From NCBI GenBank assembly GCA_964524665.1, contig CAZGFE010000004.1, forward strand, positions 255 through 64,254: a DNA stretch of 64,000 nucleotides. Reading direction: 5' to 3'. Shown piece after piece: positions 17,901 through 19,354 of this stretch. Within the stretch, counting starts at the first letter, position 1. Each line of letters opens with the position of its first letter. The translations under genes and the position numbers were made by a program. Source of the DNA: an uncultured Gemmatimonas sp. GTDB lineage: Bacteria; Gemmatimonadota; Gemmatimonadetes; Gemmatimonadales; Gemmatimonadaceae. Below the pieces are notes generated by a model. It made no database searches. It worked only from the letters and a program-made list of their open reading frames with translations, and had not been told where the DNA came from.

Positions 17901-19354
17901 GGTTCCCGAGTGGATTCACGTGGGAGACCGGATTCGAGGTCGAGCAGTGCACTGGCTTCGGGTGCACGAACTTTGCGCCGCTGACGACGACGGCCGCGAA
18001 CGATTCGATGACGATCGCGAGCGGACTGCCGGCGAACGGCACGTGGGTGCGGTATCGCGTGCGCGCGATCGCCGACGGGAACGCCGGTCCGTACAGCTCG
18101 CCGGCCACGTCGAACACGCCGCGCGAGGTGACGCTGGGCCACACGCTCGTCACGGCGACCTCGGCGGAGGTCAGCGTGACGAACAACATGACGCACTACG
18201 TGGTCGCGATGCCGGCCGGTTCTCCGAGGGTCGAGATCACGATCGGCAACGATCCTGGCGGGAGCACGGTCAACGGCGGCTCCTACCTGCTCGTGCGGCG
18301 CGGTCAGGCGATCCAGCAGCCTGCAAGCAACATCGCGGGGTTGGGCTTCTCCGGCGACACGCTGTGCGCGCCGTGGGAGTTCCCGCCGTACGATCAACCG
18401 AGTGTCACGTGCTCGATGCCGCACCTGGGCGTGACCACCGACTACTATATCACGACCTACTCGAACCCGTACACGAACCTCCGCCTCTCCGCGTTGCCCG
18501 GACCGACGACGTACACGTTCAACACGTGCTCGCAGTCGGGCCGCGTGGGTCCGTCGCAAGCGCAGTGTAATGCGGCGTACACGGGCACGTCCCTCCAGTC
18601 GCTGGTGACGGTCGCCGACTCTGGCTTCCAGAACTGGTCGGTGCCCTTCAGTGGACGTTGGGCGGTGACGGCGGTCGGCGCGGCGGGTGCGTCGGCGACG
18701 CCGGGATTCAACGGCGGGCGAGGCGCCCAGATCTACGGCGAGTTCGTTCTCACCGCGGGTCAGAGCCTTCGCCTGGCCGTGGGACAGCTCGGTTCCGGTG
18801 TCTCGTCCGGCGGCAACGGCGGCGGCGGCGGAGGCAGCTTCGTCTACGACGTGACCGGCGGTACGCCGCTCTTGATCGCGGGCGGAGGCGGCGGGACGCG
18901 CGGCGCCGCATCGCAGAATGGCTGTGACGCGTCCACCACATCCTTCGCCGTCACCGGCAGCGGAGGCTCTCCGACATCGCCGTGTACGGTGAAGGGCGGC
19001 GGAGCGGGAGCTGGAGGCATCGTGAGCTCTGGATCGTGGGGCTCAGCGGGTGCGGGCTTCAACAGCAATGGCGGCAGCGACGCGCCGTACGGCACCGGTG
19101 GTCGCTCCTGGGCGGCGTTCCTGGTCGGCGGCACGGACGACTTCGGCTGCGGCGGCGGCTTCGGCGGCTTCGGTGGCGGCGGATCAGGCGGCGGCTGCAA
19201 CGGCGGCGGCGGTGGTGGCGGGTACTCCGGCGGTGACGGCGGCTGGATCGCCGGCGGCGGCGGATCGTTCAACTCTGGCACCAGTCCCGCGGCGCTCGCC
19301 GGGGTTGGGACCGGACACGGCACGATCATCCTCCGGTACCTCGGCCCGCTCTGA
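8909..19354 (+). CDS. Giant (~3,480 aa) lipoprotein: PPC-like domain, ~29 tandem fibronectin type III repeats, second PPC-like domain, C-terminal ALK/LTK-like glycine-rich domain
   Basis: ATG 8909 overlaps upstream stop (ATGA); lipobox-like 'AGVVTSC'; repeated P..P..L.A......I.L.WTDN..NE..F.(I/V)ERC..Y.YRVRA.N; C-terminal Gly-rich domain. Confidence 0.88.
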   Translation: MIMTRRSLTLAAAILAAGVVTSCDTPTIPPTEGAIAPRIALIEPSPEQRASLVLPLTAVRATVLGPTGKVIDLTLQGSTWRGTAKGLQPGTYELVIEGLAAGEVQFYGRTTGITVARGAEASPAVPFATAVPVVSAPPLNNTTSFSQRIPFARIPGATGYSIQFSKSSTFSSGNIELATPDTNPQITVTDVGTWYVRTRATLPNTSSPVPWSDSRSWEVIIATGGNDAGSATPVAVVPGNAQTVAQRNLTPTKREDWFDLPVRAGDSVFVETFAARLNPASPLNTIVTLFRSNGTTVIATNDDHAATTDSRVVAIAPGTETAKVRVTGASNTNGHYEATLEVRRLPAAPTGLTAVVVSGTQVDLEWTDNSDNETQFAVERCTGAACTNFVEVGTTVADDDSYSDNALALNNNYRWRVRARNSFGTSAYTAIVGASTFAPTQPSTLNATTAGATQIDLVWPNDLANADTIRVERCTGAACSSFTPLVAFANVPGDTTYSDLTTVYGQSYSYRLRVSNAVATSGYTSTATATTLPPNTPTGLSGAPVTATRIDLTWTDNSSNETGFRIERCTGDACTNFAEIATVGANITTYQDLTVAFNTGYRYRVRAYHVITSAVYSNVANADTRPPATPTSLTATTASGTSITLAWTDNADDELSYQIDRCTGAACTDFAQIGTAAANATGYTDNTAAVGQSYRYRVIAVGVPGNSAASNIAAANTLLPADPSAPTATTITATRIDIAWTDNSDNETSFVVQRCTGAACNSGFANIATVGANVTAHQDSTAVPGTSYGYRVRAANVAGNSGFTSIAYANTLPPADPTGLTATTVSGTQIDLAWTNNAPSAVTMRIERCTGASCSNFAEIAVVPAAQVTYADVGGADPVALNNSYRYRVRAQNAADVSSYSNEAAANTMQAAAPTLVVATTLAGPAVSVAWNTSAGPGVTGYEIQRCTGVGCSTFSSLVSLGSSAVDYADASVVVGADYRYRVRALNVVGAGPFSAIVNANTRLPNAPSALTATVMTGFVRLTWQDNADNEGSTAVLRCAGAACSPVYLTTISAADSVAWNDSSVVDDTEYTYRVRAENVVGNSAESGSAVANTLIAAPVTVLSATAVSQSQIDLAWTQSADQGTGLLTAYRVYRCAGACAPSTAGTVIATLPANASAYTDVAVQADSSYTYMVVPRTAFGDTPFAGSATAFASTALPAAPSALVGTLISPTSIQLDWTDNAGNETGFEIAQCAGAGCTTFATVGSTGANVTTFLADTLTFSVEYRFRVRAVNSAGASAWTDTLSIGTTVPAAPTALVAFITNGSGNIRLLWTDTSDDETGFTVEYCVGGGCTSFTALTSAGADATQLDLGSGGSSTYRFRLIAVNGAGTSAPSNFVEITGDAPYAAPTGTIATTTGPTSIRLTWSDQTNNETVFRIYRCTGGACDPLTGVLVDSVPRDSTSYTDVTVATGQLYRYSIAAANGHSQNASIAFDGHTMAPDAPTSLTATALSNMEIALAWTDGGPFETQYVIQRCQGAACVNFAAIDTLPANFVSYNDAGLTPNATYRYRIEAINAVAGGAYSNVAEKATSLPATPTGLGALAMSFTRIDLTWTDNATNEDFYIVERCAGSCDASGTFVEIETGLAPNAQAYSDLTVASGQTYSYRVRALNAGGVSPYTNIASATTAVPTSPSGLTATTLSGTLIQLTWTDNAFNENVYELERCTAATCPTFTLRKTLPANTVSYVDTVAPDGEYTYRVRGSNNVGAGGYSNDASATTLRPFAASDFTVMTVSGTRIDLTWTDNATDEDGYVLERCSGVGCSNFTLLDSLPVDASGYQNDGIAPQTSFTYRLYAYNIAGPSDITGPATATTITPAAPTGLTAVLAAPGQIDLTWVDNATNELQYRVERCGVGTSKCATADSMNVYAVEVATLGPNANSHSDPGLAPATLYFYRVRATNIAGASAYTAIVSRSTSVPPAPTAPVAVTQLATRIDLAWTDASANEEGFRVERCIGPDPCTTFTQIVQLPAGTTSHADSTLSAGQTVWYRILAFNGGGANASSVVSATTIVPATPENFTGHATSLTSAYLAWTDAATDEAGYYLDRCLGDGCVNFAQIASLPANTTDHNDGTLAAGNIYRYRVRAHGNGSSAYSAVVALATIAPEAPSNVVATAVSDTRIELTWTDNTGPAVLWNETDWIILRCTGAGCNPVNLHTVLPAQSTQFSDSLLTPGESYSYIVQAYSQAGSTGVSGVVTATTNVPAIPTMLTDSTISVTEVLLSWQDNANNENGYEIERCTGDTCTDFVPVDTAAADAQSRLMAGLDSAFRYRFRVRAFNASGSSGYSNIVVARSGVPAAPTALVGTLISPTQLDLAWTDNGENETAYIVERCDGSGCSGFAVIDSLAANLSAYQDATIAIDTVYSYRVRASNAVGPSAYATVVDVSTYRPATPASLVATPISATRVDLSWTDVAANDTAIVVERCTGVDCSSFADVAVLAPTATSHIDSTVAVNNTYAYRLRAVNVAGSSAPTDSAVAGTFIPSDPSGLTATTDSQNQITIDWVDNSNTETDFRIDRCTGVACASFDSLQVVGANVTSYADGSVSLGNSYSYRVVARGGGGNSNPSNSATAHTFPAGTVATLTGAPLTATTLQLTWTAGEYATAYQISTVSGSDTTLFSTVSAGVTDTVVTVTTGQTYLFVVRATNVSGSGDAAGAMVAMTPPPAPVNLTVFPLSTSQASLAWSDTTTRETGFQVERAFFSAGSFGAYSTVANLGANVTSNVNTVPAPTGRYKYRVRAVNLVGAGAYSNEVDLTLSAPLAPTGLGAAVTAPGRITLTWTDNSDSEQAFSIERSVGNNVSYSQLGFVGPGVQSHVDSAGLTINTTYYYRVRAVNNIGASGYSNESSTTTTVPAIVSAVGTTILSSTSIQITWNGAATIGETGFRVYRCIGVGCTDFTLLDGTLPADAVSYTDVTASYGNRFRYQVRPYNIAGEPTGNFTADRLLVLPTPSLVVLPVDRTSMRVKWFPSGFTWETGFEVEQCTGFGCTNFAPLTTTAANDSMTIASGLPANGTWVRYRVRAIADGNAGPYSSPATSNTPREVTLGHTLVTATSAEVSVTNNMTHYVVAMPAGSPRVEITIGNDPGGSTVNGGSYLLVRRGQAIQQPASNIAGLGFSGDTLCAPWEFPPYDQPSVTCSMPHLGVTTDYYITTYSNPYTNLRLSALPGPTTYTFNTCSQSGRVGPSQAQCNAAYTGTSLQSLVTVADSGFQNWSVPFSGRWAVTAVGAAGASATPGFNGGRGAQIYGEFVLTAGQSLRLAVGQLGSGVSSGGNGGGGGGSFVYDVTGGTPLLIAGGGGGTRGAASQNGCDASTTSFAVTGSGGSPTSPCTVKGGGAGAGGIVSSGSWGSAGAGFNSNGGSDAPYGTGGRSWAAFLVGGTDDFGCGGGFGGFGGGGSGGGCNGGGGGGGYSGGDGGWIAGGGGSFNSGTSPAALAGVGTGHGTIILRYLGPL
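9941..18121 (+). repeat. Array of ~29 diverged FN3 repeats (~94 aa each) within the giant lipoprotein
   Basis: 29 W(T)DN-type repeats counted by eye; 26 carry a close Cys pair (e.g. CTGAAC). Confidence 0.85.

Follow-up and report, generated by a model that had tools for sequence, protein, structure and literature searches.

An ALK/LTK-type domain as the probable exchangeable tip of a giant lipoprotein in Gemmatimonas

A domain resembling the ectodomain of the animal receptors ALK and LTK is encoded, close to a protein kinase gene, in a 64,000-nucleotide stretch of DNA from an uncultured Gemmatimonas sp. (contig CAZGFE010000004.1, positions 255 to 64,254 of the forward strand; the whole stretch is hereafter called the window). 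In the accessible text of PMC10605310, the ALK/LTK receptor family is defined by TNF-like plus glycine-rich (TG), EGF-like, membrane and kinase parts within one chain. An earlier note on this DNA, written by a model from the sequence alone, had singled out the position of the domain in a kinase operon as the striking feature. The locus raises the question of whether the domain acts together with the kinase as a receptor, or serves the protein that carries it.

Based on comparison of the locus with its relatives, the ALK-type domain is probably (at roughly 70%) the exchangeable binding tip of a long, presumably lipid-anchored surface adhesin fibre. Close kin fill the same slot with three other domains behind the same kinase gene, and the domain is therefore likely to be a swappable tip and not part of a kinase receptor.

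One position at the protein end, four kinds of tip

The kinase gene is followed by a gene for an exported protein (gene 2) and then by the giant gene that ends in the ALK-type domain. Gene 2 was present in 29 of the 55 genomes of the genus. Six were left out, gene 2 lying near a contig end, and the remaining 23 operons were examined, three of them at fragmented loci (N gaps, frameshifts or a contig break) that were read in pieces. The kinase was upstream in 22 of the 23, the remaining contig beginning at gene 2, and downstream of gene 2 all 23 encoded lipoproteins that share their N-domain. The ends of the proteins differed: seven carried the ALK-type domain, nine a domain of 140 amino acids (aa), two a DUF4350-like domain and three an RCC1 propeller on a Big_2 stalk; one was tipless and one was interrupted by a contig end. 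The ALK-type, 140-aa and DUF4350-like tips all came after the same PPC(-like) domain. The slot at the protein end is thus shared by four unrelated tips.

The approximately unbiased (AU) test rejected a single clade of 140-aa tips on each of three trees, with p-AU 5e-67 for the stalk, 4e-08 for gene 2 and 2e-07 for the kinase. One clade for the ALK-type tip was rejected on the gene 2 tree (p-AU 0.0009) and, weakly, on the stalk tree (0.041). The tip of genome G408 is 82% identical to that of the window, and its backbone groups with genomes of another tip type.

Several observations weigh against a freely exchanged binding tip. The kinase tree did not reject one clade for the ALK-type tip (p-AU 0.18), being too weak to test exchange of that tip. 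The tip labels were strongly clustered, with three changes against a minimum of two on the stalk tree, six against five on the gene 2 tree and two above the minimum on the kinase tree, so that exchanges happened but were few. The ALK-type domain is conserved, at 55–82% identity among orthologues, and is not hypervariable. Among 209 long relatives it was N-terminal in 47 and present in several copies in 85, and is thus not always a single distal tip. A surface fibre would also require a lipoprotein to cross the outer membrane.

The 140-aa tip (L053:13293-13712 and eight other orthologues) belongs to no Pfam family. It lay closest to unnamed, phage-rich ESM Atlas clusters (0.94–0.98), with lectin-like (0.90) and DUF4082 (0.88) leads, and is a candidate new lectin-like family. 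In genome G401 (L055:13688-16684), a short version with four fibronectin type III (FN3) repeats is tipless and is followed by unrelated genes.

Homology and predicted fold of the tip domain

The TG domain (18509..19351, + strand), with six conserved Cys, forms the final 281 residues of the giant protein. A phmmer search with this domain against all PDB sequences gave nine matches at E≤0.001, exclusively LTK, ALK and SCD-2; the best was LTK 7nx0 (E=1.8e-13), the scoring part being the first 100 residues. The earlier note had allowed that the likeness might vanish once Gly runs were masked. A 94-aa piece with no Gly run longer than two (18509-18790) still matched LTK at 1.5e-12 and ALK at 4e-9, and all nine of its PDB matches at E≤1 were LTK, ALK or SCD-2. 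The same piece matched 336 of 349 collected proteins, and none of 50 shuffles matched any; these proteins had been gathered with the tip domain, so the first count says no more than that the signal resides in the non-Gly part. A profile built from 125 relatives reached ALK at E=3e-28 over three collinear stretches.

The order of motif blocks that had been read from the translation of 18512-19354 (+) was borne out. Both Cys of the N-terminal pair flanking the first helix aligned with those of ALK/LTK, as had been proposed, and the insert that follows GQQG in ALK is indeed absent, about 33 ALK residues facing two profile positions. The N-terminal pair, kept in about 70% of the 125 aligned rows, probably forms a disulfide; all six Cys of the domain are kept in 70–74% of the rows and would form three. 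Against homology, the Pfam family PF12810 (ALK_LTK_GRD) gave no score for the window tip domain or for five orthologous domains. The family matched 51 of the 125 aligned relatives at E≤0.01, and the best ESM Atlas matches of the tip (0.95–0.97) were to clusters with PF12810 on 29–32% of their members.

From the single tip sequence, AlphaFold2 gave a predicted local distance difference test score (pLDDT) of 34. With the 125-row alignment the pLDDT was 96.7 and the predicted template modelling score (pTM) 0.94. Foldseek returned 21 PDB matches to the aligned model at E≤0.001, ALK-family throughout among the matches listed, with E about 1e-18 and TM 0.67–0.76 for the human chains. In a second, Foldseek-independent search of 48,161 chains, ALK 7NX3 ranked first (Z 34.9, root-mean-square deviation 2.2 Å, 253 residues, 34% identity), model residues 1-284 aligning to ALK 678-986. 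It was followed by SCD-2 of C. elegans (Z 23.1), the Pam3 fibre (8.6), the Bxb1 tail tip (8.2) and TNF ligands (4–5). The ALK structures appeared in 2021, after the monomer weights of AlphaFold2 had been trained, and the match to ALK is therefore unlikely to have been memorised. In the predicted model, N- and C-terminal strands build a TNF-like sandwich to which a polyglycine-II bundle is fused, in agreement with the fold that had been expected.

A resemblance produced merely by Gly runs could be argued from the composition of the domain (31% Gly), the failure of PF12810 to detect it and the poor single-sequence model. This artefact was rejected and can be regarded as vanishingly improbable, since the piece without long Gly runs matches ALK-family chains exclusively and the aligned model superposes on ALK from end to end. 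The tip domain is a true homologue of the ALK/LTK TG domain and belongs to the TG family by homology and predicted fold; the giant protein falls outside the ALK/LTK receptor family.

Architecture of the giant protein

The giant, lipoprotein-type protein (8909..19354, +) is a 3,481-aa open reading frame (ORF) whose ATG overlaps the stop of gene 2. It begins with a lipoprotein-type signal peptide (8909..8977, +) with the lipobox Cys at residue 23; this Cys and the next Asp were invariant in 22 of 22 aligned orthologues. The following Ig-like region (8978..9940, +), identified by blastp to all examined orthologues and by alignment, is common to all tip types, RCC1 forms included, and had no match in a Pfam search. 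The stalk (9941..18118, +; Pfam fn3 E=3e-103) consists of about 29 FN3 repeats, 28 counted by pattern and one by eye, and 24 repeats have a CxGxxC-type Cys pair. From the usual length of an FN3 domain, the extended stalk would measure about 95–105 nm. Directly before the tip lies a diverged PPC-like domain (18119..18499, +). It was missed by Pfam and by a local PPC hidden Markov model and was found by profile-profile comparison alone, hhalign giving a probability of 90.7% against the PPC domains of orthologues. Hydropathy and Pfam analysis of the giant protein revealed no membrane helix, EGF or kinase domain. A Tox-WTIP match within an FN3 repeat scored 17 bits against a cut-off of 25, and a toxin reading was rejected.

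Giant repeat adhesins of the LapA, SiiE and MpIBP type have a membrane-side anchor, a long Ig-like stalk and a distal binding module. The layout of the window protein is the same: lipobox, about 29 FN3 repeats, PPC-like domain and a non-repeat distal tip. It differs from those adhesins in having a lipoprotein signal in place of type I secretion, disulfide-bearing FN3 repeats, and a co-transcribed kinase and PEGA protein. As judged from its signal, the protein is likely surface-anchored via lipid.

The proposed mechanism is as follows. The giant protein would be exported as a lipoprotein, and its disulfide-braced FN3 repeats would keep anchor and tip about 100 nm apart. By analogy with phage tips, loops that project from the polyglycine scaffold may let the domain bind a glycan, lipid or protein at the surface of particles or of other cells. 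Replacement of tips by recombination just past the PPC domain would alter what the cell sticks to, and the kinase and gene 2 would likely serve the fibre whatever its tip, regulating or building it, with no particular dependence on the ALK-type domain.

The kinase operon

The kinase gene (5518..7290, +) encodes a Hanks-type Ser/Thr kinase (Pfam Pkinase E=1e-45, PEGA, Zn_Ribbon_1), with an N-terminal zinc ribbon, the kinase domain, one membrane helix, a Pro-rich linker and a C-terminal PEGA domain. The kinase-domain motifs are intact and hydropathy placed the single membrane helix at about 6649-6708; the ATG start was selected because orthologues begin there. Gene 2 (7287..8912, +) encodes a 541-aa exported protein and its start overlaps the kinase stop, so that all three genes overlap stop-to-start. 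Directly 3′ of the giant-gene stop is a strong hairpin (19362..19418, +; −52.4 kcal/mol, z=−5.6, equally stable shuffles 0/200), which is likely the transcript end; it was not called by a terminator scan because it has no U-run.

The gene 2 product comprises a signal peptide, a helical N-part, PEGA/carboxypeptidase-regulatory Ig domains and a trypsin-like domain, followed by a C-terminus of a conserved hydrophobic segment, a Gly run and a short strand. None of the 23 orthologues retains the Ser motif of the trypsin-like domain, and most lack its catalytic Asp; an active protease was rejected on the basis of the missing triad, and the sequences read as those of a conserved pseudo-protease. The end of the gene (8780-8912) encodes, in 23 of 23 orthologues, basic residues, a WxW-led Ala/Gly hydrophobic segment and a mostly Gly linker, after which a short strand closes in VPNP or similar (23/23). 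This C-terminus is possibly a membrane anchor with a donor strand. Complex predictions for gene 2 with the lipoprotein N-domain gave no consistent score (0.00, 0.42 and 0.00 against a mark of 0.32). Three named gene 2 orthologues were labelled Gemmatimonadaceae or Gemmatimonas. In the available portion of PMC7159879, PEGA appears solely as a peptidoglycan-associated domain of other systems.

Association of the domain with kinases

The kinase operon that the earlier note had stressed is real and conserved, but it is not special to the ALK-type domain: 7 of its 23 copies carry that domain, and no enrichment near kinases was seen elsewhere. A kinase domain was fused to none of 348 tip-domain homologues outside the genus. 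A second phylum, the kinase-rich phylum of genome G448 (myxobacteria-like by inference), had the domain in 43 of 301 genomes. No kinase enrichment was found there, with 6 kinase ORFs in 557 kb (41 stretches) versus 9 in 317 kb of controls, a rough comparison in that the controls numbered 17 stretches of 20 sought and the test stretches include the 2–4 kb host gene. A same-strand kinase within 2 kb upstream of the domain was present in 2 of the 41 stretches. A domain-specific kinase link was rejected on the varying tip in the slot, the lack of fusions (0/348) and the lack of enrichment in the second phylum. The domain as a kinase ectodomain in cis was also rejected, the kinase being a separate gene whose product already has a membrane helix and a PEGA ectodomain. 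The kinase neighbourhood is a feature of the fibre locus and not of the domain.

One locus of the second phylum (L063:6045-10852), in a genome unrelated to that of the window, encodes in this order a membrane kinase, a hairpin-ended exported protein and a surface protein with an ALK-type tip. The latter has a beta-helix-like repeat stalk, and the genome holds six copies of the domain.

Alternative explanations

The arrangement could instead be a split receptor, in which the tip would sense a cue that the fibre and gene 2 would pass through the envelope to the membrane kinase transcribed with them. The overlapping genes with a strong hairpin at their end would suit such a relay, as would the kinase upstream in 22 of 23 operons, the constancy of kinase, gene 2 and lipoprotein N-domain while stalk and tip vary, and the repetition of kinase, hairpin-ended protein and ALK-type-tipped surface protein at L063. 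The kinase, however, has its own PEGA ectodomain; about 29 repeats, some 3,200 residues, separate the tip from the only predicted anchor; and neither the homologues (0/348 with a kinase domain) nor the second phylum (6/557 kb versus 9/317 kb) ties the domain to kinases. The window genome also has 31 kinase matches, and another of these kinases precedes an exported protein and a lipobox protein. The split receptor is thus considered unlikely. Its fullest form, a three-part receptor kinase with a swappable head, a 100-nm lipoprotein fibre, pseudo-protease PEGA coupling and a membrane Ser/Thr kinase, is similarly doubtful; if it were true, the pairing of an ALK-type domain with kinase signalling would have arisen in bacteria separately from animals, and this bacterial subfamily, which is far nearer to ALK than the phage fibres, would be the pool from which the animal ectodomain came.

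Somewhat less probable again is a structural cap, a domain that closes, stiffens or protects the fibre end with no specific binding. High conservation, six conserved Cys and the lack of a demonstrated hypervariable region would fit a cap, but the domain is also the sole domain of PEP- and IPTL-CTERM proteins of about 330 aa, which have no fibre to cap; binding also accounts better for the presence of RCC1 propellers and lectin-like sandwiches in its place, and one orthologue has no tip at all. A recent capture of an animal ALK/LTK piece, serving as a mimic of or trap for ALKAL-type ligands, might be proposed as the model resembles human ALK (Z 34.9) far more than it does phage fibres (8.6 and 8.2) or SCD-2 (23.1). 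The domain is, however, 46–63% identical to bacterial relatives and 34% to ALK, lacks the ALK insert and EGF-like domain, and has GC and third-position GC (GC3) in line with the rest of the gene. In a tree built without animal sequences the domains of the genus nest among bacterial sequences, the genus label of nine database proteins in that tree being guessed from FN3 architecture. Such a capture is highly improbable, and the exchangeable binding tip is preferred over all of these explanations.

Occurrence of the domain

The earlier note had supposed that the domain itself might not be new, and thousands of microbial relatives on many kinds of surface protein were found. The tip domain was matched by 4,252 clusters (50% identity) at E≤0.001, and by 1,732 shorter and 1,622 longer proteins among about 8,000 candidates each. 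PEP-CTERM proteins accounted for 35 and IPTL-CTERM proteins for 26 of the 125 aligned rows; other carriers were type IX secretion system (T9SS), autotransporter, cadherin, PKD, Big and PF11617 proteins. Source names included Proteobacteria, Bacteroidetes, Verrucomicrobia, Myxococcota and a nanohaloarchaeon, and 90 viral models matched at E≤0.001. In the second phylum 41 of 42 ORFs had the domain at the C-terminus, as did 116 of the 209 long relatives.

Within the phylum of the window the close form is rare, occurring in 3 of 401 genomes, all of its genus; at the level of the genus, 7 of 55 genomes had the tip domain. A profile search of the family matched 7 of 301 genomes, the four in other genera weakly, and two of these four loci were small secreted proteins.

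Pattern scans of public collections revealed loci in at least 6 of 598 genome, at least 21 of 600 virus and at least 1 of 597 metagenome candidate stretches; the scans are weak because the conserved words are Gly-rich, and these numbers give no frequencies. An archaeal bin contained a 3,547-aa open frame with the domain near its N-terminus (L062:9404-20044). At least 21 viral contigs (L067-L087), one of them a giant-virus bin, had the domain; in several of their proteins (1,900–2,000 aa) it was near the N-terminus, and some had it in adjacent genes.

Comparison with known systems

The tip shares with human ALK/LTK TG (PDB 7NX3, 7LRZ, 7NX0/7NX1; PF12810) its homology, predicted whole-domain fold, Cys pair with helix and order of Gly blocks. 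It differs from them in lacking the GQQG insert and in having an extra conserved Cys pair (model positions 143 and 163). The receptors carry the TG and EGF-like domains, a membrane helix and a tyrosine kinase on a single chain, whereas here the tip ends a giant lipoprotein and the kinase beside it is a separate gene of the Ser/Thr type. According to the accessible parts of PMC12017499 and PMC10605310, ALK and LTK bind ALKAL cytokines and dimerise on ligand.

The phage polyglycine tips (Pam3 gp24, 7YPX/7YFW; Bxb1, 9D93; S16 gp38; Jabs ORF65) have the same TNF-like and polyglycine distal fold, and a surface-binding role is likely common to them and the window tip by analogy. Pam3 and Bxb1 are far more distant from the tip than ALK is, their Z scores of 8.6 and 8.2 extending over 132–136 residues, and the window protein, with cellular gene neighbours and an FN3 stalk, is not a virion protein in a tail cluster. 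From the portions available, Pam3 gp24 is trimeric and has a chaperone, its likeness to the ALK domain is already published (PMC9608196), a similar domain is present on a mycobacteriophage spike (bioRxiv 10.64898/2026.07.24.740622), and variable loops on the polyglycine bundle of gp38 set host specificity (bioRxiv 10.1101/2023.11.25.568672).

Bacterial, archaeal and viral proteins of the PF12810 type, at 46–63% identity to the window tip, use the domain in the same way as a surface module; unlike theirs, the window domain fills a defined slot, occupied in kin by unrelated domains, inside a conserved kinase operon. A literature search whose scope did not include the three ALK structure papers of 2021 or any supplements brought up no description of cellular bacterial members, and none of the kinase-PEGA-lipoprotein operon. 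Bacteria are not mentioned in the accessible part of an ALK evolution paper (PMC7851593), and two polyproline-II bundle surveys, in the parts available, name ALK, LTK and gp38 and list no cellular bacterial homologues.

The domain is catalogued and common, so the ALK match itself is no discovery. New here is the exchangeable slot: relatives place unrelated domains where this protein has the ALK-type domain, as would be expected of binding tips, and function can thus be approached by comparison. These naturally swapped tips form a compact series that could help to identify a first ligand for any bacterial member, and the tip belongs to a bacterial subfamily whose superposition on human ALK (Z 35) makes it useful for asking about the origin of the ALK/LTK ectodomain.

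Genes neighbouring the operon

Upstream of the operon, 4476-5345 is presumably an SPFH-like gene, and it was present in both loci covered far enough upstream. A prophage origin of the locus was rejected, the neighbours being cellular and conserved in the genus. Downstream of the operon lies a DUF72 gene (19436-20254), and the same gene was found at this position in 5 of 22 examined relatives.

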